Notes under the pieces: model-generated
What the model was told of the DNA's origin: nothing
The model's input: the letters and a program-made list of their open reading frames with translations, nothing else
Databases searched by the model: none
Translations under genes and position numbers: made by a program
Assembly (NCBI GenBank): GCA_023356605.1
Contig: JAKQYE010000039.1
Coordinates: forward strand, 1-34,066
Direction of reading: 5' to 3'
From: Trichodesmium sp. MAG_R02
GTDB lineage: Bacteria; Cyanobacteriota; Cyanobacteriia; Cyanobacteriales; Microcoleaceae
DNA length: 34,066 bases
In this document: piece by piece, positions 563-31,100 of the stretch
Numbering within the stretch: position 1 is the stretch's first letter
Layout: each line of letters begins with the position of its first letter

Positions 563-2926
563 TTATTTTGATGATTTATAGTTGAAAAATAGATAAATAC
601 ACAACCCAGTAGTTATGAAGAAAAGAATCCATATTCTCTCATCAATAGTATTTAAACCAAATAATAGACTAAGTAACTGTGTTTGCGCTCCTATTATAAA
701 ACTGAGCAAAATGATAACTAATGTAATAATGATAAGTATCCAATTTTTTTTCTGTTGTTTGTAAATGTTATAAGTAGTTGATACAAATAATAAAAAGAGA
801 ATAATAAAAACAAATGGCTCTAATGGTTGAAACCCTTGAAGGTTGTTAGAGTTAAAAATTAGATCTTTAGGTTCGTTGACATAATAAAGTCTAAAAGGTA
901 TCCAAAGTAGCGTCATAGCTTGAGAAAAAACTAGATGTTGCATGTATTTATTCTGATTAAAAAATTTTCTTGGTTCTTGAACTTGCCCCCAAAGAACAAT
1001 AAAGATTAAAATTGTAAAAACTATTAGCAAGAAAGTGTAAGCGTAAAACCAGCGACTGATAGAAACCCAATTTTTTCTTCCTTTCCAAGTTGTATTGAAA
1101 TTTAATCCAAGAGTCATGAAGTTATGGAAACCAATGACTTGTGATTCAGTAATTTTATTGTTGTCTTTCAATTTAAGATAATTAAGTAGGGCTTGTTCAA
1201 GGGTGGGTTTATTAATTATGATCTTGTCTTCATTGATAAGCTCTCTAGTGTTAACGATTTCTAAGGGTATTTCTTTAATGCTATTGAGTTCACCTTTAAT
1301 AGCTGAGACTTTAATACTTGATTGAGCAGACTGACTGACTTCAAAAAGTAGCATATTAGGTGATGTAACTTCTATACAAGTAACAATGATGGAGATTAAT
1401 AATACTATAGGTATTACCCACTTAAATTCATATTTATTAATTATTTGTCCCCAACCTTGGCAAACACTCCAGATAACTGCCCAAAAAGCACACATAGGAT
1501 ATATAATCATATGTGGGTATAATTTGGCGTACCACAAAAACTTTTCTAAGCCAAATTCACAAATAATACTAAGAGGTAGACCAAATACACCTAACATTCC
1601 AAACAACCGTAATTGAAGAGGTAATTGATACTCAGATAAAAAACTTTTCCATGTTGGCAAAGGAACTGCAGGATTTGGTACAATTACAGGCAGGGAATGT
1701 CCTCCCGGATATTTATCAGGTTTATTGTATTCTTTTTTTAACCCTTTTCTTGCTTTCCCCACTGCAACAAATAAAGCTTCATCGCGAGAGAAAGATTTCA
1801 GAAAATATTTGAGAAAATCTATCGCCATTTTATCAGGTATTGATTCTTTCATTACGATACTTTGGGGGAAACGTAATTCAGCAAGCCTATTCGCAATACC
1901 TAACCCGTCACAAGAGTTAAAAATAGCCAAATATAATCCCTGCTCAATAGCGACTTTTAACTCTTCTTCTATATCATCTATAGTAATACCTATTTTATCA
2001 CTTTTATTCAGATATAGGACTCCTTGACCATTTTTATTAGTTTTACTATGACCTGAATAAAAGATAATATTCCACCCTTTTTTTTCTGTTAATTCAGTTT
2101 TTAATTCTTCTAGAGTAGGTTGCGCTAAAAATTTAGGATTTCCACCATATTTCCTTACTTCATTGAGTAAATCTGAGTCTCGATCAGTATTAATATTATC
2201 GCTATCTCCTAAGATAACTAAAATACGAACTTGGGGATGTCGTTTAATATTTTTCCACCCTGGAGGTGGTTCATATTCTGGCGGACTAATAGCAATTTCT
2301 ATTTTAGAATACTCATACTCTTGAAAGAACTCCCATTCTTGCCAAGGAAGTTGTTTTAATAAAGCGTTATCAGTTTGAATAGTGACAGAAATTTCTCCTG
2401 AATTATCAAGATATTCAGTTAACAAATCACTAACTTTTAACCATCTTTCCGATTTCAGCCAATTGTTGAATTTAGTAGTCAAATTTAGATAAGATTCCCA
2501 ACAATTTGGACGAGTATCTTCTTCATCTTGACTGTTAGTGGCAGCTTCTTCTTCATCGTCATCATCATCTATCGTAATTCCATCATCATCATCCTCATCA
2601 ACCACTTGTGGTAAATCTTCTTCATAGTTATCATCATCTATCGTAATTCCATCATCATCATCCTCATCAACCACTTGTGATAAATTTTCTTCAATTGCAG
2701 TTGTACTATTCTTTCGGGATCTAGGGTTTACAATTTGACTAAATGTTTCTTTCCATTGATCAAGTGATGATTCAAGACTTTCAGGAACTGAATGAACAAG
2801 ATATCGCCTATAAATTTTTGATGAATTATTCTCATTATCAATTTTTACTTCTATCCTGAACCATTCCAGTTCACCAGTTCTTTTATTTATCTGTTCAACT
2901 AAGTTGAGGTCAATTTTTTGTGCCAT
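563..2926 (-). CDS. CHAT (caspase-like) domain protein fused to a C-terminal polytopic membrane domain (787 aa)
   Basis: Long ORF. The central part has CHAT-type His and Cys motifs (IIFYSGHSKTN and LAIFNSCDGLGIA), preceded by an LPWQEWEFF segment typical of cyanobacterial CHAT proteins. The N-terminal third contains two 23-aa acidic repeats. The C-terminal ~350 aa has about 7-8 long hydrophobic stretches (e.g. FGMLGVFGLPLSIICEFG, WVIPIVLLISIIVTCI, FYAYTFLLIVFTILIFIVLW, ILIIITLVIILLSFIIG). Confidence 0.8.
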   Translation of the reverse strand: MAQKIDLNLVEQINKRTGELEWFRIEVKIDNENNSSKIYRRYLVHSVPESLESSLDQWKETFSQIVNPRSRKNSTTAIEENLSQVVDEDDDDGITIDDDNYEEDLPQVVDEDDDDGITIDDDDDEEEAATNSQDEEDTRPNCWESYLNLTTKFNNWLKSERWLKVSDLLTEYLDNSGEISVTIQTDNALLKQLPWQEWEFFQEYEYSKIEIAISPPEYEPPPGWKNIKRHPQVRILVILGDSDNINTDRDSDLLNEVRKYGGNPKFLAQPTLEELKTELTEKKGWNIIFYSGHSKTNKNGQGVLYLNKSDKIGITIDDIEEELKVAIEQGLYLAIFNSCDGLGIANRLAELRFPQSIVMKESIPDKMAIDFLKYFLKSFSRDEALFVAVGKARKGLKKEYNKPDKYPGGHSLPVIVPNPAVPLPTWKSFLSEYQLPLQLRLFGMLGVFGLPLSIICEFGLEKFLWYAKLYPHMIIYPMCAFWAVIWSVCQGWGQIINKYEFKWVIPIVLLISIIVTCIEVTSPNMLLFEVSQSAQSSIKVSAIKGELNSIKEIPLEIVNTRELINEDKIIINKPTLEQALLNYLKLKDNNKITESQVIGFHNFMTLGLNFNTTWKGRKNWVSISRWFYAYTFLLIVFTILIFIVLWGQVQEPRKFFNQNKYMQHLVFSQAMTLLWIPFRLYYVNEPKDLIFNSNNLQGFQPLEPFVFIILFLLFVSTTYNIYKQQKKNWILIIITLVIILLSFIIGAQTQLLSLLFGLNTIDERIWILFFITTGLCIYLFFNYKSSK
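2561..2694 (-). repeat. In-frame 69-bp tandem duplication encoding two 23-aa acidic repeats inside the CHAT gene
   Basis: Copy 1 is 2561-2625 and copy 2 is 2630-2694, nearly identical. They encode LSQVVDEDDDDGITIDDDNYEED and LPQVVDEDDDDGITIDDDDDEEE. Confidence 0.9.
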
Positions 2927-3149
2927 AAATGATTAATTATTCATAATAGGACTTAGAAATTTTTGTAGTGGTAAACAACTAATGATTTTTCTACTCTACC
3001 TTCTGACACATAATGAAAGGAATGTAGCAACTAATATCCTTACCTGTTTAGGACTACCGAAATTTTTTAGGAGAAAAATGTGACAAAGCAAGTCTATACA
3101 AAGAAATTATGTCCGTGCCATAAAAATGCCAAGACTCCTTGCTGACAGG

Positions 3150-4439
3150 TTAACTAACCGGAAAAGGTTCAGTTTTACTTTGGCCGTTTAGAGTGATTTT
3201 AATCTGAAACACTTTTCCTTTTTTTATATTACTTTCAAGTTTTTCGATATTCATAGTTGCAGGCTTGCTAGGATTAGGAGGAATAAAAAGCTGATTATCT
3301 CCTGTTTTAGCTGTATTTGAAGTCAAAACTTTACCAGAAGGGTTGAGTAACGCTAATTCTAAACCAGAGGGTAAACTTCTTGTATCTACTCCATGAGGAA
3401 TTAGTTTAAAAGACAGCTTTATGTCTTGATTTTCTTTTCCTTGTTTAATCTCAATCATTAGAACAAATCTTTGATTATCTAATTCAATTATTTTCCCTCT
3501 GTTGAATTGAATAGATTGCTCTTTTTTAGATAGCTGATTAGCATCTGCTCTTGGTCTTCGCGCACTAGAAACTAATATTTTTTCAGGTTCAAGCCAATTA
3601 ACATCTAAAAGTTTTTCAAGCCGTTCCCTATAATAATTAATTTGATCATCATGATGATCAGCACACAACTTCGAGTATAACTGCTCCCGCCAATTATGCT
3701 TCGACATCAATGCCGCCCATTTAGGAAAAGCCACTTCTGAATCATCAATAGGTTCGGAGTTAGTCACTAATAACCTGGGAGAGTAACCACGAGGTTTACC
3801 CAAAACCTCCGAGATGCGATCAAACTCATTATCGGATAACTGTGGGAGCGCCGAGACTTCTGCCCTTTCTGTTTCCTGAAATTGACGGGCAACCCACATC
3901 ACAGTCAAATCCTCAATTAACAACTCCCCTGGAACCGAATAGTTGCGCAAAACTGGGTCATATTCTGCCTTTTGTTTAAGAGTTTTATGAGAAATGAAGC
4001 CCCAGATCCTTAGCCACCTCTGCTCCAAATTAACCTGCACTCCCAAATAATAGTCTGCCAGCCAATTTGGAATATCCACCCACTCTTGAGGCACGGAAAA
4101 TTCATCCGTATCTATGGTCTCCTGGGGAATCAATGCTAGGCGGGTATGGCCGATAGTCAAAGCAGTCCCGTTGACAAATTCCCAAATACTAGGCAAATCT
4201 TCAGCGCTTGGCCAAATATTAAACTCTTCCTCTATAGGCGCCTCCATCCGAAGCCAATTTGTAAAACAATTTAACACTAAACGATTAATTAAGGCATGAC
4301 GGCGGGCTACATCATAAGAATAGTCTGAATTGTTGGGGGATGCTGCCTCTAGATCTTCTGGGGTGATTTCCAGAAAAACTTGTTCTGGATATATTGCTGT
4401 TAACTTTTTGATTAAACTAGACATTTTTGTTGCCTCCAC
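3150..4439 (-). CDS. DUF1822 family protein
   Basis: The 429-aa ORF matches my recollection of the cyanobacterial DUF1822 family (WEFVNGTALTIGHTRLALIPQE, VPQEWVDIPNWLADYYLGVQVN, RIWGFISH). The track start is a GTG overlapping the upstream TAG stop (TAGTG). A more likely start is ATG at 4424, which has GGAGG 7-8 nt upstream. Either start is tightly coupled to the sigma-like gene. Confidence 0.75.
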   Translation of the reverse strand: MEATKMSSLIKKLTAIYPEQVFLEITPEDLEAASPNNSDYSYDVARRHALINRLVLNCFTNWLRMEAPIEEEFNIWPSAEDLPSIWEFVNGTALTIGHTRLALIPQETIDTDEFSVPQEWVDIPNWLADYYLGVQVNLEQRWLRIWGFISHKTLKQKAEYDPVLRNYSVPGELLIEDLTVMWVARQFQETERAEVSALPQLSDNEFDRISEVLGKPRGYSPRLLVTNSEPIDDSEVAFPKWAALMSKHNWREQLYSKLCADHHDDQINYYRERLEKLLDVNWLEPEKILVSSARRPRADANQLSKKEQSIQFNRGKIIELDNQRFVLMIEIKQGKENQDIKLSFKLIPHGVDTRSLPSGLELALLNPSGKVLTSNTAKTGDNQLFIPPNPSKPATMNIEKLESNIKKGKVFQIKITLNGQSKTEPFPVS

Positions 4440-5971
4440 TAATGAATGTTTTCTTGGAAAATATGAATTAAAAACTCGTCAACTAAGTCACTAGTTTTTT
4501 TCTTCAAGGGTTCAGAGGATGCTAGGGAAATTTCTAATTTCTCCTCTAGCCATTGTAAAATTTTGGTAACTAAAACTTGAAAAACATCCTCAATTTTCTC
4601 TTTTTCAGGATCAGTAAGGCTGAACTCTGGAGTATTTGTATTGAAAGGTTTGCGCTTTTCCAATTTAAAAGGTTTGCGCTTTATATGCAATTCAAGTATT
4701 TCTTGGGACGAGGGTTCCAACTGCTGCCATATTTTTAGAAACGATTGGTAAACCAGGGAGGAAAAATGCTTTTCATTATTTTTGCGCACCTTATTAACTA
4801 ACTGAGATGTATTCGCATCCAATTTTTTTTGAGCACGCAACTCCTCCACTTTTTCACTCATTCCTTGCCTCTGACAAAATTCTTCCAGCCACTTTTTATT
4901 ACTCTTATTAATTCGACGACTAACCTGAGATTTGTTTTCTTGATACAGTTCGGCAATCCCATCCATTGAAAGCTCAAAAACATACAATAAAATCAGTGAA
5001 CCATATTCTTTGCTATTTGAATTATCTAGTAAATCGTCGCTTTCTTGAAGATTGATCATGGTAGTATCTGCTTCCCAATTGTATCTTTCTTCAGGAGTTA
5101 CGTCTAGAAATGTTGTCCCTTCACCATTTTTGATATGATCATCTAAGCTAATTTCCTTCGGGCGATAATTATATTGATACAGCGCCTCAATAGCATTTTC
5201 TAAACATTGGTGAATAAACTCAGCATTGACCTGTGAATTATCCTGTTTTAATTCTGGCGATCGCCTCCGCTGCAGAATCGGATATCTTTCTGCCATTGCC
5301 TCTAACTGCTCCTGTGTTGGTGGGTTATATTTTTCCCCTTTTACCGGAGCATAAACTTCCTTAAAGCATTCCCAAGCTAAGAAATAACTTTCTAGTTTGA
5401 TATTGGGATAGCCAGAAAATTTTAAAGCTTGCTTAAGTTTCTTTCCACTGAATGTATATAGTATCCGGTATTTTCTAGATTTTTCTAGTTGTATTTCAGC
5501 ATCTTTCAAACGTAACAATTTTTGAAAGACTTGATCTCTAATTTTATGTTTTATATCATTATAAATATAACCATATGTACCTCGACTGCTATTGTATGTT
5601 GCAAAAAATTTGCCTGGCTCAGAAGCAATTTTAAATCCCTCTTGATAGATATCCTCTAAACCTAATGAACCGGAATACTTAAATTGATCATAATTATTAT
5701 AAAACTCCCTAGCTGCTTTCTGCGCAATATGGCATAAATAAGCTTGCAAATGTTTAACTGCAAATTTGTCATTGCCATTGCGAAACTGTTCAACAAAAAT
5801 CACCAAAGCTTCTTCCGGGTTTAAACCTGGTTTAGACTCTAGCATTTTTTGCAAACTGTGTTTGAGACCTGTTTCTATTTTCCACCTTAGTTTTCCTGAA
5901 CTATCCAAAATAGGCCAACAGCAAAACAACGAAATTAAGTCTTTGTCCATGAAAATCACTCCTCCCATCAC
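4439..5971 (-). CDS. Atypical long sigma-70-like protein (region 2-like and region 4-like segments)
   Basis: 510-aa ORF. GLEDIYQEGFKIASEPGKFF...YGYIYNDIKHKIRDQV resembles sigma70 region 2. ILLYVFELSMDGIAELYQENKSQVSRRINKSNKKW resembles the region 4 HTH. The probable true start is ATG at 5950 (MDKDLISLF), with GGGAGGAG 8 nt upstream. Confidence 0.6.
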   Translation of the reverse strand: MMGGVIFMDKDLISLFCCWPILDSSGKLRWKIETGLKHSLQKMLESKPGLNPEEALVIFVEQFRNGNDKFAVKHLQAYLCHIAQKAAREFYNNYDQFKYSGSLGLEDIYQEGFKIASEPGKFFATYNSSRGTYGYIYNDIKHKIRDQVFQKLLRLKDAEIQLEKSRKYRILYTFSGKKLKQALKFSGYPNIKLESYFLAWECFKEVYAPVKGEKYNPPTQEQLEAMAERYPILQRRRSPELKQDNSQVNAEFIHQCLENAIEALYQYNYRPKEISLDDHIKNGEGTTFLDVTPEERYNWEADTTMINLQESDDLLDNSNSKEYGSLILLYVFELSMDGIAELYQENKSQVSRRINKSNKKWLEEFCQRQGMSEKVEELRAQKKLDANTSQLVNKVRKNNEKHFSSLVYQSFLKIWQQLEPSSQEILELHIKRKPFKLEKRKPFNTNTPEFSLTDPEKEKIEDVFQVLVTKILQWLEEKLEISLASSEPLKKKTSDLVDEFLIHIFQENIH

Positions 5972-6472
5972 AATTGTCTTATATAGGCCTAATCATAATA
6001 GCTATTTAATAATCAAAAGGGACATTGACAAACCATCACCTATCCTCCAAAAGTCCAATTTTTCATAAATTATTGAATTCATGGCCATCCCCATAGCAGA
6101 TACCACCCAATTCAGATTTACAATCCATCCAAGACCTCTTTATCTTTAAATTAGGTGGAATTTTTGACTTTGTTGCAGCGATCGCTAAAATTTCTTTCCC
6201 AACCCCAAGAACCTGTCTTGCTAGCTGAGTAGAAGGTAATAAAAACTAGCCTTCACAGCAAAACCAGCAAATTAAATCTTCCTCCATTAAATTAGCTCCT
6301 CCCATCAGAATTGTTCTATACACACCTATCCTCCAGAAGTCCAATTTTTCATAAATTATTGAATTCATGGCCATCCCCATAGCAGATACCACCCAATTCA
6401 GATTTATGATCCATCCAAGACCTCTTTACCTTTAAACTAGGTGGAATTTTTGACTTTGTTGCAGCGATCGCC
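5959..6472 (-). repeat. Tandem duplication (period ~286 bp) of the leader, RBS and first codons of the sigma-like gene
   Basis: The 150-bp cores 6037-6186 and 6323-6472 differ at about 5 positions by eye. Both end in HIP1 GCGATCGC. The RBS/start segment 5959-5985 recurs at 6296-6320. Confidence 0.9.
6246..6305 (-). pseudogene. Truncated diverged duplicate of the sigma-like gene 5-prime end (19 codons then stop)
   Basis: The reverse strand reads ATGGGAGGAGCTAATTTAATGGAGGAAGATTTAATTTGCTGGTTTTGCTGTGAAGGCTAG, i.e. MGGANLMEEDLICWFCCEG*. The real N-terminus is MGGVIFMDKDLISLFCCWP. Confidence 0.55.
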
Positions 6473-6564
6473 AATATAGTAATCATCCTTATTATTGGTC
6501 TCCGTTTTTGTTAATTGGTAATCAGTTGTAATTCAGTTTATTTGTAACGCTTCCTATTAAGAAG

Positions 6565-6715: not shown

Positions 6716-6885
6716 CTTCCTAAATATTTACTTTATAAATGTTTTCTAAAGCTAAACATTACGAGAAAATCAGAGTTTTTTTTATTATGGTAAAACCAAA
6801 AGATTTTAAAGTCATCAAAAAAGATGAACAAGGATTAGTCTATATCTGGAAATTGAGATAATAAATTGACATTAGTAAATATCAA

Positions 6886-6988
6886 CAAGACTTACGTAAA
6901 GAAACCAGGTTTATACAGTAAATCATTGTTTTTAACACATAAATATCTACGAGAAACCGGGTTTCTCAGTTTGCCTGCGTAAGTCCTG
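6886..6988. mobile_element. MITE family A copy 1 (103 bp, TIR CAGGACTTACGCA / TGCGTAAGTCCTG)
   Basis: caagacttacgtaaag...gcctgcgtaagtcctg. About 90-97 percent identical by eye to the copies at 9834, 28767 and 30952. Confidence 0.85.
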
Positions 6989-7165
6989 ATCAAAAAATTA
7001 ACAGTGTAGACAATTTTCCATATTTTTTTAATAGATACAACTCTTATACAACTTTTTACCATTTAGGATTTAAAAGCCCAAGGTTATATATTGTTTGCAA
7101 TTAGTTCGGGTTTTAATTTTCATCTAATTGGTATTCTCTACCATCTTCTCCATTGAATTTATATT

Positions 7166-8251
7166 ATGATTACTTCACAATTCTATAGTTCAAAATATTT
7201 CTCTGAAACTTATAACGAAGCCAGAAATAAATTCTGTGACGCTGCAAAAGCTGCAAATGCAAAACTTGAAACAATCGAATTATACTCTCAAAATTGCCGA
7301 AATAATTCTTTATATACTGATATAGCATGGTTAGGAAATCCCAAGCCTGATAATGTAATTTTGCATTCTTCGGGTTTACATGGAGTAGAGGGGTTTGCTG
7401 GTTCAGCAATACAAATCTGTGTCTTAAAAAATTTACCCGTTTTAAGGAATGAAGATGCATTAATTCTAGTACATTGCTTAAATCCTTATGGAATGATAAA
7501 CTTTCGTCGTGTTAATGCTTCAAACGTTGATTTAAATCGAAACTTTTTATTTTCCAGTGATGAGTATTCCGGTTCTCCAAATATCTATAGTAAGATTAAT
7601 TCTTTAATTAATCCTGACTCTCCTCCAGTATTTGATTTATTTTTTCTGAGAGCATTAGCAATAATTCTAAAATATGGCTTTGTAGCTGTTAAGCAAGCAG
7701 TAGCAAATGGTCAATATGATTTTCCTAAAGGATTATTTTTTGGTGGAATAGAACTTCAGGAAGAATTAGTAAATTATAAGGAGTGGCTTCTCAAAAATTT
7801 ACCTTTAGTAAAGAATATTTGTGCCATAGATGTTCATACAGGTTTAGGTCGTTTTGCCAATGATTTACTTCTTATAGAAGAAAATTGTTCTCATTCAGAT
7901 TTGGAAAAACTTCAAAAACACTTTGGTAAAGAAAGAATAAAAACACCAAATCCAAATAAGTCTGTAGCTTATCAAACAAAAGGTAGTATCTCTCAAGCTA
8001 TTCCTCAGCTTTTAAATCGAGCAAAAGTTAATTTCTTAACACAAGAGTTTGGCACTGTTTCACCTATTTCGGTTCTCTTTGCATTACGAGAAGAAAATAG
8101 AAATTATCATTACGGTAAAAATGATCAGTCGTATTCATCAGTTAAGATTAGGCTTAAAGAGGCTTTTTATCCTTCTTCAAATATATGGAGAAAAAAAGTT
8201 TTATTTAGAGGACTTCAATTAGTACATCAATCAACTAAATTTATCTTTTAA
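7166..8251 (+). CDS. M14-like metallopeptidase / DUF2817 family protein
   Basis: 361-aa ORF with HSSGLHGVEG (HxxE zinc motif), VDLNRNF and a later DVHTGLG histidine. These are hallmarks of the M14 carboxypeptidase/succinylglutamate-desuccinylase-like fold (DUF2817 type). Confidence 0.65.
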   Translation: MITSQFYSSKYFSETYNEARNKFCDAAKAANAKLETIELYSQNCRNNSLYTDIAWLGNPKPDNVILHSSGLHGVEGFAGSAIQICVLKNLPVLRNEDALILVHCLNPYGMINFRRVNASNVDLNRNFLFSSDEYSGSPNIYSKINSLINPDSPPVFDLFFLRALAIILKYGFVAVKQAVANGQYDFPKGLFFGGIELQEELVNYKEWLLKNLPLVKNICAIDVHTGLGRFANDLLLIEENCSHSDLEKLQKHFGKERIKTPNPNKSVAYQTKGSISQAIPQLLNRAKVNFLTQEFGTVSPISVLFALREENRNYHYGKNDQSYSSVKIRLKEAFYPSSNIWRKKVLFRGLQLVHQSTKFIF

Positions 8252-8902: not shown

Positions 8903-8995
8903 TATAGTCATTTTAATTTAGATTGAGACAATTATTTATTGCTATAACTAGGTTTTAGCAGAAAAAGTTTTCCATTCTGATTTGAAATAACTATA
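8903..8995. mobile_element. MITE family B copy 1 (93 bp, TIR TATAGTCATTT / AAATAACTATA)
   Basis: tatagtcattttaatttagattgagacaa...ctgatttgaaataactata. About 85 percent identical by eye to 10402-10494. Confidence 0.75.
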
Positions 8996-9130
8996 CTTAT
9001 TAAAGTTGTTTGAGCCGAGTAAATGCCGCGGTTCTGGGTAAGTCCTATAACAAAAAAAACCACCAAACAAGATATAAATCTCATCTAGTGGCCTAGCCAT
9101 AAGGAGTAACCATGGAAAAAAAAGAAAATT

Positions 9131-9600: not shown

Positions 9601-9833
9601 TTCGTTACCTCTCTAATACTGGATAAATGTGCTAGTTTTTCTACAATGTTTAATTGAAATAGATATAGCTGAAGTTAGAAGTCTACTCTCCGTATCCCCT
9701 GCTTCTCCCCATCTCCCCATCAAGGGAATACTTATGATTTTTTCAAATTATGAAAATAATACCTTACTTTAAATTATTACATATTCGTGTTTGGAAAAAA
9801 AGTAGCGATCGCTGCCATTTCAGTTATAAATTA

Positions 9834-9936
9834 CAGGACTTACGCAAAGAGACCCGGTTAAGACCGTAAATCATTCTTTTTAACACATAAATATCTAGGA
9901 GAAACCGGGTTTCTCAGTTTGCCTGCGTAAGTCCCG
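9834..9936. mobile_element. MITE family A copy 2
   Basis: caggacttacgcaaagagacccggtt...gcctgcgtaagtcccg. Confidence 0.85.
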
Positions 9937-9957
9937 TTGATATTGGATTAACCAATA

Positions 9958-10401: not shown

Positions 10402-10494
10402 TATAGTTATTTTAATTTAGATTCAGACAAGTATTTCTTCCTATAACTGAGTTTCAGCAGAAACAGTTTTTCATTCTTATTTGAAATGACTATA
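10402..10494. mobile_element. MITE family B copy 2
   Basis: tatagttattttaatttagattcagacaa...cttatttgaaatgactata. Confidence 0.75.
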
Positions 10495-10564
10495 ATTACC
10501 CTTTACTATGAAATCTTATTTCTCCGAGTCAAAGGAAAACTATTAATTACTTTAGCTATATATG

Positions 10565-13642: not shown

Positions 13643-15112
13643 ATGTTACAGCCAACAGAAGTATCTTCCAAGCCAACAGTCAACAGCTTCGCAAATATGA
13701 TAGCAACTCCAGAAAAAAAATCTGGTAATTGCGAATCAAAGGGTTGCGGAAGCAGTGAACAGGAAATTTCCCTCAGTATTCAAGAGCGTATTGCTAATCA
13801 TCCTTGCTATAGTCAAGACGCACATCATCATTATGCTAGGATGCATGCTCCAGTTGCACCAGCTTGCAATATTCAATGTAATTACTGTAACCGTAAATAC
13901 GATTGTGCAAATGAAAGTCGTCCTGGTGTAGTAAGTGAACTGCTAACTCCTGAAGAAGCAGCTCACAAAGCTCTAGTAATTGCTGGAAAAATTCCCCAAA
14001 TGACGGTTATGGGCATTGCTGGCCCTGGTGACCCATTAGCGAACCCAGAAAAAACATTCCGCACTTTTGAGCTTGTAGCTGAGAAAGCTCCAGATATCAA
14101 GCTTTGCTTGTCAACCAATGGTCTAGCTTTACCTGAGTATGTAGATCGGATTAAAGCGTTAAATATTGATCACGTCACTCTAACAATTAATATGGTTGAC
14201 CCTGAAATCGGGGTAAAGATTTATCCTTGGGTTCATTACAAGCGGAAACGCTATAAAGGAATTGAAGGGGTCAAAATTTTGCATCAAAAGCAAATGGAAT
14301 CTTTAGACTTACTCAGAGAAGCTGATGTTCTCTGCAAAGTTAATTCAGTGATGATTCCTGGTATTAATGACAAACATCTAGAAGAGGTGAACAGGGTTGT
14401 TCGCTCTAAGGGTGCATTTATCCATAATATCATGCCCCTAATTTCTTCACCAGAACATGGCACTTACTTTGGCTTAAATGGTCAGCGTGGTCCAACTACT
14501 GAAGAATTAAAAGTCTTACAGGATAAATGTGATGTTGGTGGTATGAAAATGATGCGCCACTGTCGTCAATGCCGTGCAGATGCAGTTGGTCTCCTAGGTG
14601 AAGACCGCAGTAAGGAATTCACAAAGGAAGCTGTTATGGATATGACTTCAGAGTATGACATACAAAAGCGTAAAGAATTTCATGCTGGAATTGAAGGTTT
14701 CCGCAGTAAACTAGCAAAAGCTAAGGCTTCAGATCCAACTACTGAGAAAGTTGAGGAAGCTGGTCCGCCAATACTATTGGCAGTAGCAAGTAAGGGCAAC
14801 GGATTAGTTAATCAACACTTTGGTCATGCTAAAGAGTTTATGATCTATGAAGTAGATGGTGTGAATGTTAAATTTATTGCTCACCGGAAAGTTGACCACT
14901 ATTGTCTAGGTGGTTATGGTGAAGAGGGAAGTCTGCAGAATATCATTAAGGCAATTTCTGATTGCAAAGCTGTTCTTGTTTCTAAAATTGGTGATAGTCC
15001 AAAGGAAAAGGTACATAATGCAGGAATAGAGGTAGTTGAGACTTATGATGTTATTGAAACAGTTGCTTTAGATTTTTACAAGCAATTCATTGGAGAACTA
15101 CAGCCAGTATAG
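13643..15112 (+). CDS. nifB: FeMo-cofactor biosynthesis radical-SAM protein NifB with C-terminal NifX-like domain
   Basis: [14 protein letters not shown] radical-SAM motif, HPCYS, and a C-terminal [17 protein letters not shown] NifX/NifB-type domain. Confidence 0.95.
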
Positions 15113-15549
15113 GTAGTGAGTTAAACTATTACTAGCTAATGTATTTTCTGCAATCATTGTGTTTCCCAATGGTTCTAGTATCAAGTCTGGTACTATCGTT
15201 AGTTAATAAAATAAGGTGGTGATAATGGGAAAACACATTTTTCCCCTGAAGATAACTGCCTTCTACCTTTCTGCCACCAAAGTCTAATTGTTCAACCGGA
15301 CATAATGTGACAAGTTTATTTCTCAAAAAATGAGATTAAGCAGAGAAATTATTAGCTTTAGTGGTTTCTACTCTACTAGAAAAGATTCTTGCACTAACTT
15401 CAAGCTTCAATATCCAATGCATAAAAGCTAGTACAGTTAACCAGAAATAAACAATATCAAGATTTATGCACTCAAAATTCTTAAATATTTGACTACTGTT
15501 TTATCTGTGCTAGTTTTTACTTACAACCATCACCTAATTTTTTTAAGCC

Positions 15550-16752
15550 ATGGAACAAACTATTTATCTAGACAACAATGCTACTACTAAACTTGATCAG
15601 GCGGTTCTAGAGGAAATGCTGCCTTACCTGAATGAGTTTTATGGTAATCCCTCTAGTATGTATACTTTCGGTGGACAAGTTAGTAAGGCTTTGAAGAAGG
15701 CGCGATCGCGAGTTGCAGCTTTACTCAACGCTGAAGATACAGAAATTATTTTTACCAGTTGTGGTACTGAGGGTGATAATGCTGCTATTAGAGCTGCCAT
15801 TACTGCTCAACCTAATAAACGGCATATTATTACTACTCAGGTAGAACACCCAGCAGTTTTGAATGTTTGTAAGCATTTAGAGAAGCAGGGGTATACAGTT
15901 ACTTATCTATCAGTAGATAGCCAGGGAATGATAGATTTAACTGAACTCGAAGCTGCTATTACGGGTAATACTGCTTTAGTTTCAGTTATGTATGCCAATA
16001 ATGAAACAGGTGTGATTTTCCCCATTGAGAAAATTGGGCAGATAGCTAAGGAATATGGTGCGCTGTTCCATGTTGATGCAGTGCAGGCAGTAGGAAAACT
16101 ACCTTTGGATATGAAGAGTAGCACTATAGATATGCTAGCTTTGTCTGGTCATAAGTTGCATGCTCCTAAGGGTATTGCTGCTTTGTATGTGCGCCGTGGT
16201 ACTCGTTTCCGTCCGTTATTGATTGGGGGACATCAGGAACGGGGTCGCCGTGCGGGGACTGAAAATGTACCTAGTATTATTGCTCTGGGTAAAGCTTGTG
16301 AATTAGCACAAGAACATTTGGCGCATATCGACCAGGAACGGGAATTACGGGATTATTTGGAAAGTGGTATTTTGGCTACTATTCCTAATTGTGCTGTTAA
16401 TGGACATCCTATTCAGAGGTTGCCTAATACTACTAATATTGGCTTTAAGTATATTGAGGGAGAAGCGATATTGCTGCATTTGAACCATTATGGTATCTGT
16501 GCTTCTTCTGGTTCTGCTTGTACTTCTGGGTCTCTTGAACCTTCCCATGTTTTACGGGCAATGGGTCTGCCATATACAGTTTTACATGGCTCGATTCGTT
16601 TTTCTCTATCACGTTATACAACTCGCCAAGAAGTTGAGGAAGTTTTGGCAGTGATGCCGACCATAGCAGAACGTTTGCGTGCGTTATCTCCTTTCAAAAA
16701 TGATCAAGCTGATTGGCTGCAAGAACGACAACAGGCAACTGTGCTCTCCTAA
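15550..16752 (+). CDS. nifS: Cysteine desulfurase NifS
   Basis: 400 aa with IYLDNNATT, SGHKLHAPKGIAALYV (PLP lysine) and SSGSACTSG (active-site Cys). Confidence 0.93.
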   Translation: MEQTIYLDNNATTKLDQAVLEEMLPYLNEFYGNPSSMYTFGGQVSKALKKARSRVAALLNAEDTEIIFTSCGTEGDNAAIRAAITAQPNKRHIITTQVEHPAVLNVCKHLEKQGYTVTYLSVDSQGMIDLTELEAAITGNTALVSVMYANNETGVIFPIEKIGQIAKEYGALFHVDAVQAVGKLPLDMKSSTIDMLALSGHKLHAPKGIAALYVRRGTRFRPLLIGGHQERGRRAGTENVPSIIALGKACELAQEHLAHIDQERELRDYLESGILATIPNCAVNGHPIQRLPNTTNIGFKYIEGEAILLHLNHYGICASSGSACTSGSLEPSHVLRAMGLPYTVLHGSIRFSLSRYTTRQEVEEVLAVMPTIAERLRALSPFKNDQADWLQERQQATVLS

Positions 16753-17179
16753 ACTTTATAATGTTTTAAGGATTGCTATAATCTTGTTTCAGCTACATTT
16801 TGTAGTGAAAATCACAGAAAACCTTAGTTGATTGAGCAACAATTACTGAGAAAGTTAAAGAGGGGTATAAATCACACTATGAACTCACAATATTGTAGCA
16901 AATTCAACAAAAAAAATCTTGACTAACCTAGAAGATAAAAATATGATTTCTGGGGATGGTAAATGACTTTAATGCCAATAACTTGAAGTTATAAAATTTG
17001 AGGAAAAAAAAGGTAAAAAGGGGTTGCTTGATTCAAAAAAATGTGCAATACTAATAATATCAAGTCTAACCCACATCTTCAAATTAATAAGTTACTACTC
17101 TATTAATTGGGTATTAACCTTCAAGAAAAAGCAAAATTTTTCATCAGTAAAAACTAGGGGATTCTAAAAAATAAGGGCT

Positions 17180-18055
17180 ATGTGGGAATATACGGAAAAG
17201 GTAATGGACTTGTTCTATAACCCTCAAAACCAAGGAACTATTACAGACCAAAAAGAGGGGGAAAAGGTAGTTAGCGGTGAGGTAGGAAGTATAGCGTGTG
17301 GAGATGCTTTAAGTCTACACCTCAAAATAAATGAAGCCTCTGGTGAAATATTAGATGCAAAGTTTCAAACCTTCGGCTGTGCTAGTGCAATAGCTTCATC
17401 TTCAGCCCTAACAGCAATGCTCAAAGGCAAAACTGTAGAGGAAGCAATGAATATTAAAAACCACGATATCGCGGGATATCTGGGAGGGCTACCAGAAGAA
17501 AAGATGCACTGTTCAGTTATGGGAGAGGAGGCATTAGAAGCGGCAATATTTAAGTACAAAGGTATTGAAGTAGAAGTTCACGAAGAAGACCACGAAGGAT
17601 CATTAGTTTGTAGTTGTTTTGCGATTACAGAAAACAAGATTAAACGGGTAATTTGGGAAAATAATCTCAAAACAGCAGAAGAAGTAACAAACTATGTGAA
17701 AGCTGGTGGTGGTTGTGGTTCTTGTCTGGCAGATATTGACGATCTAATCGCATCGGCTTACGAAAAGCCAGAACCTACAATACAACAAATTCCCACAACT
17801 ACTAAACCAGGGATTAAACTGACAAACTTGCAAAAAATTACATCAATTCAAAAAGTCTTGGAAGAAGAAGTGAGACCAGTTCTCGCGGAAGATGGAGGAG
17901 ATGTTGAGTTATTCGATGTAGATGGCGATCGCGTGCTAGTCCAACTTAAAGGAGCTTGTCATTCCTGTAATAGCGCAACGGCGACATTAAAAGGAGCGAT
18001 CGAAGCTACATTAAAAGAACGGGTAAGTGAAAGTCTTGTAGTAGAAGCAGTATAA
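17180..18055 (+). CDS. nifU: Fe-S cluster scaffold NifU
   Basis: N-terminal IscU-like domain (GSIACGDAL, FGCASAIASS, KMHCSVMG), central CxxC ferredoxin-like domain (GGGCGSC) and C-terminal Nfu domain (GACHSCNSATATLK). Confidence 0.93.
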   Translation: MWEYTEKVMDLFYNPQNQGTITDQKEGEKVVSGEVGSIACGDALSLHLKINEASGEILDAKFQTFGCASAIASSSALTAMLKGKTVEEAMNIKNHDIAGYLGGLPEEKMHCSVMGEEALEAAIFKYKGIEVEVHEEDHEGSLVCSCFAITENKIKRVIWENNLKTAEEVTNYVKAGGGCGSCLADIDDLIASAYEKPEPTIQQIPTTTKPGIKLTNLQKITSIQKVLEEEVRPVLAEDGGDVELFDVDGDRVLVQLKGACHSCNSATATLKGAIEATLKERVSESLVVEAV

Positions 18056-18225
18056 AATAGTTAATAGCTATCAGTTATAAATTGTTAACTGAAAGCAATA
18101 AATAACCAAGAAAGCAGGTAAATTAATGATAATGATATATACGCAGGTAATACCTGCTCAAGCTTTAGGGCGAGCGCCTCCGGGTACTCTAATATTGCTG
18201 CTAAATACACACTGTTCTTATATGA

Positions 18226-19269
<1,044 letters not shown>

Positions 19270-19448
19270 GCTGAAAATCTTCTAGTACAAGAGTGGGGAT
19301 GTACAAAATACACCCCATCTCAAAACATGATTAGTGATGAGTTTGTGTTAATTAATTTGTAGGGGTAGGTAAAATAACTGCCCCTATTAATACAAAACTC
19401 GAATACCAAAATATTCAAATATCCGATATCCGAAAGGAGATATGTAAC

Positions 19449-20906
19449 ATGGCATCTGAAAAGATTGAGCAGAATAAACAGTTGATTCAAGAAGTCTTAG
19501 AAGCTTATCCTGCAAAAGCTGCTAAGAGACGGAAAAAGCACCTTAACGTGATTGAAGAAAAGGGAGCTGACTGTGGCGTTAAGTCTAACGTAAAATCAGT
19601 TCCTGGTGTAATGACAACTCGTGGTTGTGCATTTGCTGGAGCAAAAGGTGTGGTTTGGGGTCCTGTTAAGGACATGGTTCACATCAGTCACGGTCCTGTT
19701 GGTTGCGGTTACTACTCTTGGGCAGGTCGTCGTAACTACTATAACGGTGTAACTGGTATTGATAGTTTCGGTACAATGCAATTCACATCCGATTTCCAAG
19801 AAAGAGACATTGTTTTTGGTGGAGACAAAAAACTCGCCAAAATCATGAACGAAATCGAAGAGTTATTCCCTCTGAATGCTGGCATCACAATTGAATCTGA
19901 ATGCCCAGTGGGTCTAATTGGTGATGACATCGAAGCAGTAGCAAAGAAAGCTAGCAAAGAAATCAATAAGCCAGTTGTACCAGTACGTTGCGAAGGATTC
20001 CGTGGAGTATCTCAGTCATTAGGTCACCATATCGCTAACGACACAGTGCGTGACTGGGTATACGAACCTTCTGCCAAAATCACTAACGAAGAAATTGGTT
20101 TTGAGAAGACTCCTTATGATGTATCCTTAATCGCTGACTACAACATCGGTGGTGACGGTTGGAGTTCTCGTTTATTATTAGATGAAATTGGATTAAGAGT
20201 TGTTAGCCAAGCAACAGGTGACGGTACTTATAACGAAGTATTCATGGCTCCTAGGGTAAACTTAAACCTCATCCACTGCTACCGTTCCATGAACTACATC
20301 TGCCGTTACATGGAAGAAGAGTATGGTATACCTTGGGTTGAGTTCAACTTCTTCGGTCCTAGCCAAATTGCTAAGTCTCTCCGGAAGATTGCTTCTTTCT
20401 TTGATGATAAAATCAAGGAAAACACAGAGAAAGTAATTGCTAGGTATCAAGAACAGGCTGATGCAGTAATTGCTAAGTATCGTCCTCGTTTAGAAGGCAA
20501 GAAAGTAATGATGATGGTTGGTGGTCTCCGTCCACGTCACATTATTCCTGCTTTTGACGATTTAGGAATGGAAGTTATCGGTACTGGTTATGAATTTGGT
20601 CACGGTGACGACTACAAGCGTACTGCTGACTATGCTCAAGAAGGTACTCTAATCTATGATGACGTCAGTGGCTACGAATTTGAAGAATTTGCTAAGAAGT
20701 TAAAGCCAGACTTAATTGCTTCTGGTATTAAAGAGAAGTATGTCTTCCAGAAGATGGGTATGCCATTCCGTCAAATGCACTCATGGGATTATTCTGGTCC
20801 TTATCACGGTTATGACGGATTTGCTATCTTCGCTCGTGACATGGATCTAGCTCTCAATAGCCCAACTTGGAACTTAATCAAGGCTCCTTGGAAGCAAGCT
20901 GGCTAA
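19449..20906 (+). CDS. nifD: Nitrogenase MoFe protein alpha chain NifD
   Basis: 485 aa with [14 protein letters not shown], and with CYRSMNYI and [15 protein letters not shown] (FeMo-co ligand regions). AAGGAG RBS. Confidence 0.97.
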
Positions 20907-21128
20907 AACCAACTGCTACGCGCTCAAAAGTCAAAAGTATTAATTTCACCTTTTGGCTTTGAAGATAAATTTAGGAACAGAAATGGGGTAATGCTATCAC
21001 TACGGCAACCCCAAGACGCAAACAAAAGATTTGACTGGAAGTTGGGATTTAGAAGTTGTAGTTGAGGTTATTCTTACTTCTTCTTTCTTCCCTCTTCCTT
21101 CCGAACAATACTATAGAGGATAAACACC

Positions 21129-22667
21129 ATGAGTCAGAATGTAGACAAAATCAAAGATCACTTTCAACTTTTCCAAGAGCCAGAATACAAAGAAATGTTC
21201 GCTCGGAAGAGAGAATTTGAAGGCGGTGCTTCCAAAGAAGAGATAGAAAGAGTTCGTGAGTGGACAAAAAGTTGGGAATATCGTGAAAAGAACTTTGCTC
21301 GTGAAGCTTTAACTATCAACCCTGCTAAAGCTTGTCAGCCTCTAGGTGCAATCTTTGCAGCTGCAGGTTTTGAAGGAACTCTTCCTTTTGTACATGGTTC
21401 TCAAGGATGTGTTGCTTACTTCCGTTCTCACTTAACTCGTAACTACAAAGAGCCATTCCAAGCGGTTTCCTCTTCTATGACTGAAGATGCTGCTGTGTTT
21501 GGTGGTCTGAAAAATATGATTGATGGTTTGGCAAACTCTTATGCTTTGTACAAGCCTAAAATGATTGCTCTTTGCACCACTTGTATGGCAGAGGTAATTG
21601 GAGATGACTTGGGTTCATTCATTACCAACTCCAAAAATGAAGGTGCAGTGCCTCAAGATTTCCCAGTTCCTTTTGCTCACACTCCTAGCTTTGTTGGTTC
21701 TCATATCACAGGCTATGACAATATGCTCAAGGGTATCCTAATAGCTCTGACTGATGGTAAGAAGACAGAAACTGATAATGGTAAAATTAACTTTATCCCT
21801 GGTTTCGACCCTTACATTGGCAACATCCGGGATTTAAAGGATATTCTGTCTTCCATGGATGTTCCTAGCACTATTTTAGCTGACAATGCTGAGAGCTTTG
21901 ATTCTCCTAACTTGGGTGAATTCAAGATGTACAATGGTGGTACAACTCTGGAAGAAGGTGCTGATGCTATTAATGCTAAGGCTACTATTTCCTTCCAAAA
22001 ATACAGCACTCCTAAGACTCTAGATTACCTAGCACAAGAAGGTGGTCAAAAAACAGCTACATACCGCCCTATCGGTGTCCGTGGTACTGATGAGTTCTTG
22101 ATGGCTTTGTCTGAATTGACTGGTAAGGCTATTCCTGAAGAGTTAGAAATTGAGCGTGGTCGTACAGTTGATGCTATCACTGACTCTCAGGCTTGGTTGC
22201 ATGGTAAGCGTATTGCTATCTATGGTGATCCTGACCATGTATTGGGTTTGTTGAATTTCACTCTAGAATTAGGTATGCGCCCAGTTCACGTTGTTGTTAA
22301 TAACGGTAACGTTGCTGGTTTTGAAGAAGAAGCTAAGGAATTATTAGCTAATGATCCTAACGGCCAAGAAGCTACAGTTTGGATAGGTAAGGACTTATGG
22401 CACTTACGTTCATTGTTGGATACTGAGCCAGTTGATTTATTAATTGGTAACTCATATGGTAAGTTCCTCCAACGTGATACTGGTACTCCATTAGTACGTA
22501 TTGGCTATCCTATCTTCGACCGCCACCACCAACACCGTTATTCTATCTTAGGATATAAGGGAGCATTCAATCTACTCAACTGGATCGTTAATACTATCCT
22601 CGATGAGTTAGACCGTGGTAGCATGGAATTAGGTGTTAACGATACGTCTTTTGACTTGGTTCGTTAA
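21129..22667 (+). CDS. nifK: Nitrogenase MoFe protein beta chain NifK
   Basis: 512 aa with [27 protein letters not shown] and [11 protein letters not shown]. Confidence 0.97.
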
Positions 22668-22692
22668 TTCATATTAACCATATAGTTTTTAT

Positions 22693-22716
22693 AGGGGCAA
22701 ATGGCAGTTTGCCCCT
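22693..22716 (+). terminator. Hairpin after nifK (AGGGGCAAA-TGGCAG-TTTGCCCCT)
   Basis: A 9-bp perfect stem lies 26 nt after the nifK stop, followed by aattggttt. A related sequence occurs inside the MITE variant at 33610-33700. Confidence 0.4.
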
Positions 22717-22780
22717 AATTGGTTTGAGAAGTTTTCAGGGATAAGTTATAGTCAAACTGCTATCTATTCCCTATTCCTAT

Positions 22781-23230
22781 ATGGTTTAAACTTACCCCAT
22801 TTCCAAAACTATCTCTACTTTAGTCGATCTTGAGCAAAGGTTTAAGTCATCTCCTACAGATAATGACTTCTTCTTTCAGGAATGGCAATAAGACTTACCT
22901 GACCTAACTGCTGAAGACAAGGAGAAGTTAGACGAAATTCAAAGACGATTTTTGCGTCATAGAAAATGAAGTCCCCTCACAGAAGATGCGATCAATTAAT
23001 TACTAATTGGACCTTTACTTGCTTTATCAGGTTTATATGATGAACCTTTCTATTTGACTACTGAAGCAAGTGTTGAAGTAGAAGTAGAAGATAAAGATGA
23101 AATTTTACGGGGTATAATTGATACTTTAACTATTGCACAACAACTTTGGGTTCTCTTAATTGAGTCTAAGTCTACTATTGCTTTTTCAGTAGCTTTACCT
23201 CAATTAATGACTTATATGAGAGTCATACGA
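22781..23230 (+). pseudogene. Decayed PD-(D/E)XK-like gene of the type often annotated as restriction endonuclease subunit R-like in cyanobacteria
   Basis: One frame reads MV*TYPISKTISTLVDLEQRFKSSPTDNDFFFQEWQ*DLPDLTAEDKEKLDEIQRRFLRHRK*SPLTEDAIN*LLIGPLLALSGLYDEPFYLTTEASVEVEVEDKDEILRGIIDTLTIAQQLWVLLIESKSTIAFSVALPQLMTYM. In-frame stops are at 22787, 22889, 22967 and 22997. The 3-prime end is missing. Confidence 0.6.
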
Positions 23231-23591
23231 CTGTGTGTTATGTTCGGGAGTCTTTCAGCTACTCAGCGCAGAAAACATTGAGCTTGTGGCTAATAAAGCA
23301 AAGAAAGCTCTCAATCCAGGAGGACTGATTTATCTGGATGTGGTTGCCAATATGAAGCACATATTTAGAGAGTCAGGAGAAGAGTTTACATACTCTGGAT
23401 TAGCCAATTGGTCTGATTCGCAAACCAAAGACTTTTTTACAAGTTTATTTGCAGATTGGTCTGTTTTGGATATGTTCTCGTTTCATCGAGAAGCAGATTG
23501 GCCTGTTAAGGAAGGGCGTTATCCAATCGATCCTTATCATTGGAGTGCTGACTATGTTTGTGTCATTGCCAAAAATCCTGCGGTGAGTTAG
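23221..23591 (+). pseudogene. 5-prime-truncated class I SAM-dependent methyltransferase fragment
   Basis: ESYDCVLCSGVFQLLSAENIELVANKAKKALNPGGLIYLDV corresponds to post-motif I/II regions only. No N-terminal SAM-binding GxGxG is present. It abuts the preceding pseudogene in a different frame. Confidence 0.55.
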
Positions 23592-24065
23592 TTCTGTTGC
23601 TAAAAAAATGAAATACTCACAAACCCAATCCTAAATCAGGAGCAATAACTACAAAGGCGGAGTCTATTAGTAGACTGTTTTATCTGAAGATGAAACAGTT
23701 TGTTGCTCATATCATGCCCGGTAGCATCGTTTGTGTATAAAATAAGTCACAATAGGAAGAAACCCTTCTGCCTTTTGTTGGGTTTCGTTCCTCAACCCAA
23801 GGGACAAAATGCTAACTCCTATACAAAAATAATAATAAAAATTTGTCATCCTAAGATTTAAGATTAGATACTCTATAGAAATATTAGGTATCTCTACTTT
23901 AGATTAAATTTTTGAGTCAGGAGTTGAAAGTGAGACAGAGGCAATAGGAGAAATAAGGTTGAAAAATACTCCCAACTCCCCCACTCCCTTACGGACGTTG
24001 CATGCAATGTCCCTACCTACTCCCCCACTGCGCCCCATAGTAGTTAATAATAGAGACTTAATAAC

Positions 24066-28869: not shown

Positions 28870-28895
28870 TTAATAATTCATAATTGATAACTGAA

Positions 28896-31054: not shown

Positions 31055-31100
31055 TAAATTTTAGTGCCAGGAAAGCAGAAGTTTTTTCCTCTGCCTGACG

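Follow-up and report, generated by a model that had tools for sequence, protein, structure and literature searches.

Near one end of a 34,066-nt stretch of Trichodesmium sp. MAG_R02 DNA (contig JAKQYE010000039.1, assembly GCA_023356605.1, positions 1–34,066; hereafter the window), three intact, co-oriented minus-strand genes span positions 563–5971 and encode a sigma-like protein, a DUF1822 protein and a CHAT protease carrying a membrane domain. The DUF1822 protein is bipartite: its N-terminal domain (N-domain) varies with the sigma protein and its C-terminal domain (C-domain) with the CHAT protein. We propose, with about even confidence, that the triad acts as a single module for signalling or conflict, in which the protease would release the sigma protein by cutting DUF1822. 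The arrangement itself has been reported: Kaur, Iyer, Burroughs & Aravind (eLife, 2021; PMC8195603) described computationally a constant EACC2 plus caspase module with variable C-termini, including multi-transmembrane (multi-TM) ones, encoded beside extracytoplasmic function (ECF) sigma and DUF1822 genes, and proposed a signalling step from caspase to ECF sigma for this neighbourhood. An earlier note made from the DNA alone (the sequence-only reading) had called the triad uncharacterised; since Kaur et al. had reported it, that holds only for experiments, of which we found none on the triad in the literature. New here are a clade of three-domain sigma proteins, a modelled DUF1822 fold that is not TPR, the bipartite co-variation, and TPR-CHAT and FHA/PrsW proteases as alternative partners.

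The two domains of DUF1822 have different similarity partners among related loci (numbered with the prefix L). The N-domain of the window protein is 84% identical to that of L001 (Okeania) and 72–75% identical to those of L002, L004, L007 and L008; BLAST finds no match to it in L068, L067 or L065/L066. The C-domain is 63% identical to that of L068, 47% to L067 and 54–58% to L065/L066, and BLAST finds no match to it in the DUF1822 proteins of L001–L009 except L005, a close Trichodesmium relative with an orthologous CHAT gene (87% identity). Identities of the constant module of the CHAT protein to the window are 63% for L068, 47% for L067, 54% for L065/L066, 34% for L001 and 32–35% for L002, L004 and L008; L007 gave no BLAST match, its CHAT open reading frame (ORF) having been masked. 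N-domain identity tracks sigma similarity, and the C-domain matches only DUF1822 proteins that adjoin orthologs of the window's CHAT-membrane protein.

Mantel tests on 18 triads gave r = 0.65 (p = 2e-4) for the N-domain and sigma and r = 0.64 (p = 2e-4) for the C-domain and the CHAT constant module; the partial Mantel values for these two pairs were 0.65 and 0.56. The N-domain and CHAT were not significantly correlated (r = 0.11). The similarity partner changes in the linker between the two domains, which is the observed recombination joint. A joint inside the gene, at the domain boundary and not in the 223-bp spacer that follows, fits selection keeping each half with its neighbour. We propose that the N-domain is the sigma-facing half and the C-domain the protease-facing half; the two-part co-variation indicates which half should bind which partner.

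Linkage of the genes was assessed by scanning a DUF1822 alignment against one genome per species, which gave 60 loci, all cyanobacterial except one evident bin contaminant and several metagenome-assembled genomes titled ‘uncultured bacterium’. Among the 58 loci with room for a gene before DUF1822, 54 have a sigma-like one immediately upstream. Directly downstream, 31 of 48 loci have a CHAT gene, whereas among the other ORFs in these loci that reach 300 aa only 7 of 152 are CHAT genes (Fisher p = 1e-17). Chance adjacency is excluded, and the association on which the sequence-only reading depended stands. The 31 genes comprise ~22 of the EACC2 type and 9 encoding TPR proteins with a C-terminal CHAT domain, and the link extends to both of these unrelated CHAT architectures (EACC2-CHAT-X and TPR plus C-terminal CHAT). 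Two Calothrix loci have an FHA/PrsW protease, fused or split, in the CHAT position (L031, 6424–7746; L033, 8680–10223). PrsW acts on the anti-sigma factor RsiW as its site-1 protease.

Seen from the CHAT side, five of six relatives whose C-termini differ follow genes for a 225–260-aa sigma-like protein and a short DUF1822 protein (305–346 aa). The matches of these short upstream proteins to NCBIfam are weak and almost exclusively to sigma families (best TIGR02937, 7.9e-7). They precede most EACC2-CHAT genes and look ECF-like, unlike the window sigma protein, and their hhalign comparison with the long sigma family was not significant (probability 1.9%).

The triad occurs in unrelated contexts: beside GH116 (L070), beside purL (Okeania L001) and on conjugative plasmids (Nostoc), with several paralogous copies per genome. 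Sets of sigma, DUF1822 and EACC2-CHAT-CHASE2 genes lie on the conjugative plasmids pCC7120alpha of Nostoc sp. PCC 7120 (L075, 336563–341853) and pNPUN03 of N. punctiforme (L076, 65214–70127), so the model is testable in tractable strains. The CHAT gene of the PCC 7120 set is divergently oriented.

The first gene product is a real but divergent sigma-70-family protein with regions sigma2, sigma3 and sigma4. Membership is argued from family-level profiles and the predicted fold because the window protein alone is below threshold: TIGR02937 (NCBIfam) scores 22.7 bits where 42.9 are required, no match to a Pfam sigma model is reported, and NCBIfam Sig-70_gmx1 reaches E = 1.5e-5 in the sigma4-like region. 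With a profile of 13 close relatives, 25 of the 27 PDB chains matched are sigma factors, and RpoS residues 177–323 (regions 3–4) align with profile positions 224–368. A second profile, built from the products of 46 genes immediately upstream of DUF1822 genes, matched SigF (1l0o_C) with E = 4.6e-7, the region 2 and region 4 stretches being separate, and also aligned with FliA region 2. Pfam Sigma70_r4_2 is found in 30 of these 46 proteins and Sigma70_r2 in 16. The top 20 PDB fold matches of the AlphaFold2 model (predicted local distance difference test, pLDDT, 71.6) are all sigma factors, matched over ~340 columns, and are three-domain sigma factors. Homologs in PCC 7120 and N. punctiforme are labelled ‘sigma-70 family’ by PGAP. 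The sigma assignment of the sequence-only reading is thus significant at the level of the family and sub-threshold for the window protein by itself.

That reading had also described region 2-like and region 4-like patches separated by long non-sigma sequence, which does not hold: the stretch aligns with RpoS regions 3–4 and is made up of a sigma3-like region and a linker (Table 1). The RpoS alignment spans the linker, residues 263–309, where pLDDT is below 50. Helices of the sigma2-like region are modelled with pLDDT 80–90, and DIYQEGFKIA...KFF..Y, read directly from the window translation, fits the region 2.1–2.2 pattern. What departs from the canonical layout is the first ~60 residues and, at the C-terminus, a helical extension of ~140 aa. 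AlphaFold2 places helices at residues 365–502, and the consensus of the 46-member family shows a conserved block behind region 4. An ECF (group 4) factor, with only sigma2 and sigma4 in ~170–250 aa, was considered and ruled out, because the protein has 503 aa and sigma2, sigma3 and sigma4 regions followed by the extension.

The sigma protein is mosaic: two relatives, P0012 and P0013 (A1 alignment; L070 and L071), differ strongly from the window protein in the N-terminal half (~45% identity by eye) and are near-identical to it from about residue 230. The DUF1822 and CHAT proteins beside them share 88% identity with those of the window.

The DUF1822 call of the sequence-only reading was far above the Pfam threshold and full length (PF08852, 223.1 bits against a cut-off of 25; E = 7e-66; profile positions 1–369 of 370), and a word-index search gave 374 homologs. 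The AlphaFold2 model is confident (pLDDT 83; predicted template modelling score 0.66) and has a conserved alpha+beta N-domain and a beta-sandwich C-domain. Kaur et al. labelled DUF1822 a TPR protein, a label that we reject on this model. The linker between the two domains varies in length across alignments and is a candidate cleavage site.

Residues 305–422 (3153–3512) have weak fold matches led by MATH domains (SPOP, E = 0.013), too weak to use; MATH is the partner of TRADD-N in animals, and TRADD-N proteins are alternative neighbours of EACC2-caspases (Kaur et al. 2021). Two sigma-DUF1822 fusions in Trichodesmium-type metagenome contigs (P0011 and P0015; L069, 32–1885; L005, 1844–4794) join sigma residues 1 to ~440 to the C-terminal half of DUF1822 at one shared joint (QEILE|SKHN). 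We rejected them as Rosetta-stone evidence of interaction, as they are in-frame deletion products in rearranged loci with a further DUF1822 fragment. Some loci have duplicated or fragmented DUF1822 genes, and the loci are rearranging actively.

The third protein bears out what the sequence-only reading said of it. Pfam CHAT (PF12770) matches residues 264–398 above threshold (28.2 bits against 24). The catalytic dyad is intact: the His motif SGHS (2056–2045) and the Cys motif NSCDG (1918–1904) are both present, and across 22 relatives conservation of His293 and Cys339, which lie in FFAGHS and AIFNSCDGLG, is at least 95%. The predicted fusion to a polytopic membrane domain agrees with eight hydrophobic segments between residues 441 and 783. 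From Kyte-Doolittle values and Lys plus Arg counts, we infer an N-in, C-in topology with a 104-aa loop (residues 523–626) outside the cell. The membrane domain has no Pfam match in the window protein or its relatives. Its relatives number only 42 among 1.8 billion representative proteins, some stand-alone (340–400 aa), and none of the fetched loci with a long DUF1822 protein carries it. A Trichodesmium sp. MAG_R02 protein in NCBI matches the window CHAT protein at 100% identity, and full-length CHAT-membrane orthologs occur in Okeania, Crocosphaera and Microcystis at 45–88% identity.

The first ~430 residues (EACC2 plus CHAT) are common to proteins with other C-termini, most often CHASE2; the others are NACHT, nSTAND1-WD40, kinase, solute-binding, GUN4, cyclase, TPR and pentapeptide. 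These variable C-termini are mostly sensor-type domains, and the variable part is the sensor in EACC1-caspase systems (10.1101/2025.11.14.688446); the membrane domain of the window protein is probably a sensor as well. Trp58 of the EACC2 domain is conserved among relatives. As no public EACC2 model exists, matching architectures and neighbourhoods are what suggest that the protein is an EACC2-caspase of Kaur et al. An acidic insert lies between EACC2 and the CHAT core in all orthologs of the CHAT-membrane subfamily and in that subfamily only; in the window it contains a tandem duplication (2547–2684) whose 69-nt copies are 96% identical and double a 23-aa Asp-rich unit, VVDEDDDDGITIDDD.

In the proposed mechanism, gene anatomy, synteny and co-variation are observed, and binding, cleavage and the nature of the signal are the parts that we infer. 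DUF1822 would keep the sigma protein inactive via its conserved N-domain and dock onto the EACC2-CHAT module via its variable C-domain. The membrane domain, probably through the 104-aa outward loop, would sense envelope damage, phage attack or another stress and activate CHAT. The activated protease would then cut DUF1822, most likely in the flexible linker, and the freed sigma protein would drive a response regulon that probably includes its own operon.

The sequence-only reading had likewise proposed a sigma, a partner and regulated proteolysis, and we regard it as partly supported. This reading gains support from the two-part co-variation, the alternative proteases in the same position and experimental precedents, on top of the synteny; its account of the sigma anatomy did not survive, and the triad was already described. 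More tentatively, and with the balance somewhat against it, DUF1822 may be a new, non-helical, two-part anti-sigma adaptor, whose N-domain would sequester sigma and whose C-domain would serve as docking or cleavage handle, in a CRISPR-independent, membrane-wired caspase pathway. Among marine nitrogen fixers Trichodesmium is a major one, and caspase-like activity has been linked to the collapse of its blooms. There, such an adaptor could link envelope or phage stress to transcription preceding caspase-associated death at bloom collapse. If the mechanism is true, DUF1822, a cyanobacterial family of unknown function, gains a concrete role, and CRISPR systems are not the only setting in which a caspase-fold protease governs a dedicated sigma factor.

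Several observations weigh against this mechanism. The C-domain coding DNA adjoins the CHAT gene and the N-domain coding DNA adjoins the sigma gene; co-variation could come from this physical linkage alone, with joints in a permissive linker and no protein contact. The sigma/DUF1822 pair that accompanies a CHAT gene changes freely by recombination, a point against tight pairwise specificity. A CHAT gene is absent next to DUF1822 in 17 of the 48 loci; the sigma/DUF1822 pair can therefore exist without a linked protease. The modelled N-domain is mixed alpha/beta, unlike the helical, often zinc-binding (HxxxCxxC) anti-sigma domain of class I, which we therefore rejected as its class. Neither the PDB profile search nor the top 50 fold matches gave DUF1822 a significant match to any solved structure, and no anti-sigma factor is among its PDB sequence matches or those top 50. 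This lowers the claim that DUF1822 contains a class I anti-sigma domain and leaves the claim that it is a sigma partner unaffected. A promoter and terminator scan found no minus-strand terminator-like site, and promoter-like sites were below shuffle expectation in the same scan; this speaks neither for nor against one transcript for the three genes. PADLOC defence models match none of the three triad proteins.

One experimental precedent is type III-E Craspase (Cas7-11, Csx29, Csx30, Csx31 and RpoE/CASP-sigma), in which a TPR-CHAT protease (Csx29) cleaves Csx30, and the N-terminal domain of Csx30 binds RpoE with a Kd of ~0.2 uM (PMC9825189). As in the window, genes for a CHAT protease, a sigma factor and a two-domain partner stand together; Csx30 is cut in its inter-domain loop, a parallel that we propose for DUF1822, and some sigma/DUF1822 pairs adjoin a TPR-CHAT gene. 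The differences are that the window has no Cas7-11, CRISPR array or Csx31; that the trigger of Craspase is target RNA, whereas here it would be the membrane domain; and that DUF1822 has no sequence or top-50 fold similarity to solved chains, Csx30 complexes included. Membership of type III-E was rejected for the window, where PADLOC gave no match for the three triad proteins, Rfam gave none in the whole stretch and the other Pfam-scanned ORFs are nif and further non-cas genes.

In CalpL-CalpT-CalpS and SAVED-CHAT/PCaspase/PCc-sigma, which are linked to type III-B CRISPR and CBASS, a signal-activated protease likewise governs the sigma factor of a neighbouring gene, cutting the anti-sigma partner CalpT in the first and PCc-sigma itself in the second. 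These systems are triggered by cyclic oligoadenylate via SAVED, whereas the triad in the window has no SAVED or cyclase; CalpL is a Lon-type protease, not CHAT, and the partner proteins are unrelated to DUF1822. RseA/sigmaE (DegS, RseP) and RsiW/sigmaW (PrsW) follow the same logic, a partner-held sigma factor being freed by signal-triggered membrane proteolysis, and the FHA/PrsW gene replacing CHAT in Calothrix adds to the likeness. They differ in that the DUF1822 partner is soluble and lacks the helical anti-sigma domain, and that the protease of the window carries the membrane domain and is caspase-fold, not a serine or metalloprotease.

The EACC2 systems of Kaur et al. are the closest match, sharing the constant N-terminal alpha+beta domain, the caspase/CHAT core, the variable C-terminus and the adjoining sigma and DUF1822 genes, and being found in cyanobacteria and other multicellular bacteria. 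The window differs from their description in its 503-aa sigma protein, which has a sigma3-like region and an extension and is not ECF-sized, and in a DUF1822 protein modelled as alpha+beta plus beta-sandwich, not a ‘TPR protein’. The two-part co-variation of DUF1822 and the TPR-CHAT and PrsW alternatives are not in their paper.

The first alternative to release of sigma by cleavage of DUF1822 is a protease-gated suicide effector, in which self-cleavage, for example in the acidic linker, would set free either EACC2 or the membrane domain; the freed part would damage membranes as a toxin and bring about programmed cell death or abortive infection, and the sigma/DUF1822 pair would only control expression of the operon. 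Kaur et al. suggested activation as an autopeptidase and that multi-TM C-termini ‘might form membrane pores’ (PMC8195603), and EACC1, the namesake analogue, is cut by its caspase-like partner and forms pores (10.1101/2025.11.14.688446), but EACC2 may be unrelated to EACC1. The stand-alone membrane-domain proteins, the subfamily-specific Asp/Glu-rich linker with its recent 23-aa duplication, and the toxin-antitoxin or restriction genes that often neighbour related loci would all suit a toxin. However, most alternative C-termini (CHASE2, STAND, WD40, TPR, solute-binding, GUN4, kinase) are sensor-like rather than toxin-like, and neither the co-variation of C-domain and CHAT nor the replacement of the protease by TPR-CHAT or PrsW beside the same sigma/DUF1822 pair is explained. 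We consider a suicide effector unlikely.

A second alternative, to which we give slightly less credence still, is that the protease acts on the sigma protein itself, for example by removing the extension, and that DUF1822, instead of inhibiting sigma, serves as a scaffold or co-activator that hands it over to the protease or to RNA polymerase. A scaffold accounts for the bipartite co-variation no less well than an inhibitor does, and the present data do not separate this model from cleavage of DUF1822. The 140-aa extension after region 4 is partly conserved across the family, some ECF groups have fused C-terminal regulatory domains (ECF41; PMC3426412), and PCaspase directly cleaves its associated PCc-sigma. 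In the best-studied precedents, however, it is the partner that is cut (Csx30, CalpT, RseA, RsiW), and RpoE resists Csx29.

A HetF-like role in development or division, in which CHAT would degrade a division or differentiation regulator, perhaps in connection with nitrogen fixation, is highly improbable: HetF of Anabaena/Nostoc is a membrane-anchored CHAT protease of filamentous cyanobacteria that degrades PatU3 and is the best NCBIfam match of the window CHAT protein, and a nif cluster (nifB, S, U, H, D, K, EN) begins 7 kb away at 13643, but the match (NF045509) is confined to the catalytic core and, at 30.8 bits, falls far short of the cut-off of 1200, HetF itself has a single TM helix and TPR repeats instead of eight helices and no linked sigma/DUF1822 pair, and the triad has the unrelated contexts and paralogous copies given above. 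We rejected HetF orthology on the score and on the eight hydrophobic segments without TPR, and a functional tie to the adjacent nif cluster because the same triad occurs in other genomic contexts.

Table 1. Features of the triad and its upstream region in the window (aa, residues of the encoded protein)
Feature	Position	Strand	Details
EACC2-CHAT-membrane protein gene	563–2926	−	787 aa
C-terminal membrane domain	566–1618	−	aa 437–787; eight hydrophobic segments; predicted from hydropathy and loop charge
CHAT (caspase-fold) protease core	1637–2509	−	aa 140–430; His293 at 2050–2048, Cys339 at 1912–1910
Acidic low-complexity linker	2522–2704	−	contains 69-nt tandem duplication (2547–2615, 2616–2684)
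N-terminal constant domain (putative ‘EACC2’ of Kaur et al. 2021)	2717–2926	−	aa 1–70; aligns across relatives with unrelated C-termini
DUF1822-CHAT spacer	2927–3149	−	223 bp
DUF1822 gene ORF	3150–4439	−	429 aa from GTG start; probable start ATG 4424
DUF1822 C-domain	3153–3512	−	aa 305–424; predicted beta-sandwich, AlphaFold2 strands at 305–422
DUF1822 long helix and flexible inter-domain linker	3513–3674	−	aa 251–304; pLDDT <50 at 287–303
DUF1822 N-domain	3675–4424	−	aa 1–250; predicted alpha+beta, highly conserved; pLDDT >90
Sigma/DUF1822 junction	4424–4441	−	stop TAG 4441–4439, GGAGG 4437–4433, ATG 4424
Divergent sigma-70-family gene	4439–5950	−	503 aa from ATG 5950; 510 aa from GTG 5971
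C-terminal helical extension	4442–4858	−	aa 365–503, ~140 aa; no counterpart in canonical sigma factors
Sigma4-like helix-turn-helix	4868–5023	−	aa 310–361; matches region 4 of SigF, FliA, SigW
Disordered linker	5024–5164	−	aa 263–309; SLD...LD motif; resembles region 3.2 linker
Sigma3-like region	5168–5446	−	aa 169–261; RpoS regions 3–4 alignment, fold matches
Sigma2-like region	5516–5773	−	aa 60–145; DIYQEGFKIA...KFFATY...YGYIYNDIKHKIRD; aligns with SigF/FliA region 2
Sigma upstream region	5951–6477	−	conserved blocks and tandem duplication including truncated second gene start

The ORF listing and a direct reading of the junction agree with the gene layout of the sequence-only reading: three co-oriented minus-strand genes (563–2926, 3150–4439 and 4439–5971), an overlap of the sigma stop with the DUF1822 start region, GGAGG ahead of ATG 4424, and a 223-bp gap before the CHAT gene. 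The sigma stop TAG shares one base with the GTG at 4439, and GGAGG sits 8 nt before ATG 4424, which is most likely the true DUF1822 start. The true sigma start is most likely ATG 5950 (MDKDL); this ATG and the Shine-Dalgarno sequence ahead of it (GGAGG) are kept in relatives. Most related loci have a spacing of −59 to +30 nt between the sigma gene and the DUF1822 gene; the overlap is 4 and 17 nt on the two Nostoc plasmids.

Upstream of the sigma gene, positions 6037–6191 and 6323–6477 are tandem repeats with 95% identity, and 5918–5991 and 6255–6328 are 78% identical. In the upstream copy a shortened second start of the gene opens with ATG 6287 and MEEDLICWFCCEG and then runs into a stop. Non-coding blocks GCGATCGC-TGCAACAAAGTCAAAAATTCCACC and GAAAAATTGGACTTYTGGAGGA occur upstream of this clade's sigma genes only. 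The two conserved blocks, GCGATCGC-TGCAACAAAGTCAAAAATTCCACC and GAAAAAYTGGNYTTNTGG, lie ~100–290 nt upstream of sigma genes (block positions in the window 6043–6064, 6329–6350, 6154–6177 and 6440–6463) and are also found in L001, L002, L004, L005, L007, L008 and L014, where the sigma proteins behind them are only ~40% identical. L004 and L014 likewise have two copies, so duplication of this region recurs. A regulon search found no further copies of the motif elsewhere in the window or elsewhere in the fetched loci. The blocks could be an autoregulated promoter or leader.

Rfam and tRNA scans of the window gave no match. Between 8252 and 11704, beside a DUF2817 gene (7166–8251), ~3.4 kb have no ORF of at least 100 aa. 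A dispersed repeat of 111 nt has four intergenic copies in the window (6883–6993, 9831–9941, 28764–28874 and 30949–31059; 88–100% identity) and looks like a miniature mobile element; a second repeat pair of 97 nt lies at 8903–8999 and 10402–10498. The nitrogenase cluster at 13643–26876 comprises nifB (13643–15112), nifS, nifU, nifH (18238–19269), nifD and nifK, together with a single 936-aa ORF (24066–26876) that has two nitrogenase component 1 domains and is apparently a fused nifE-nifN.

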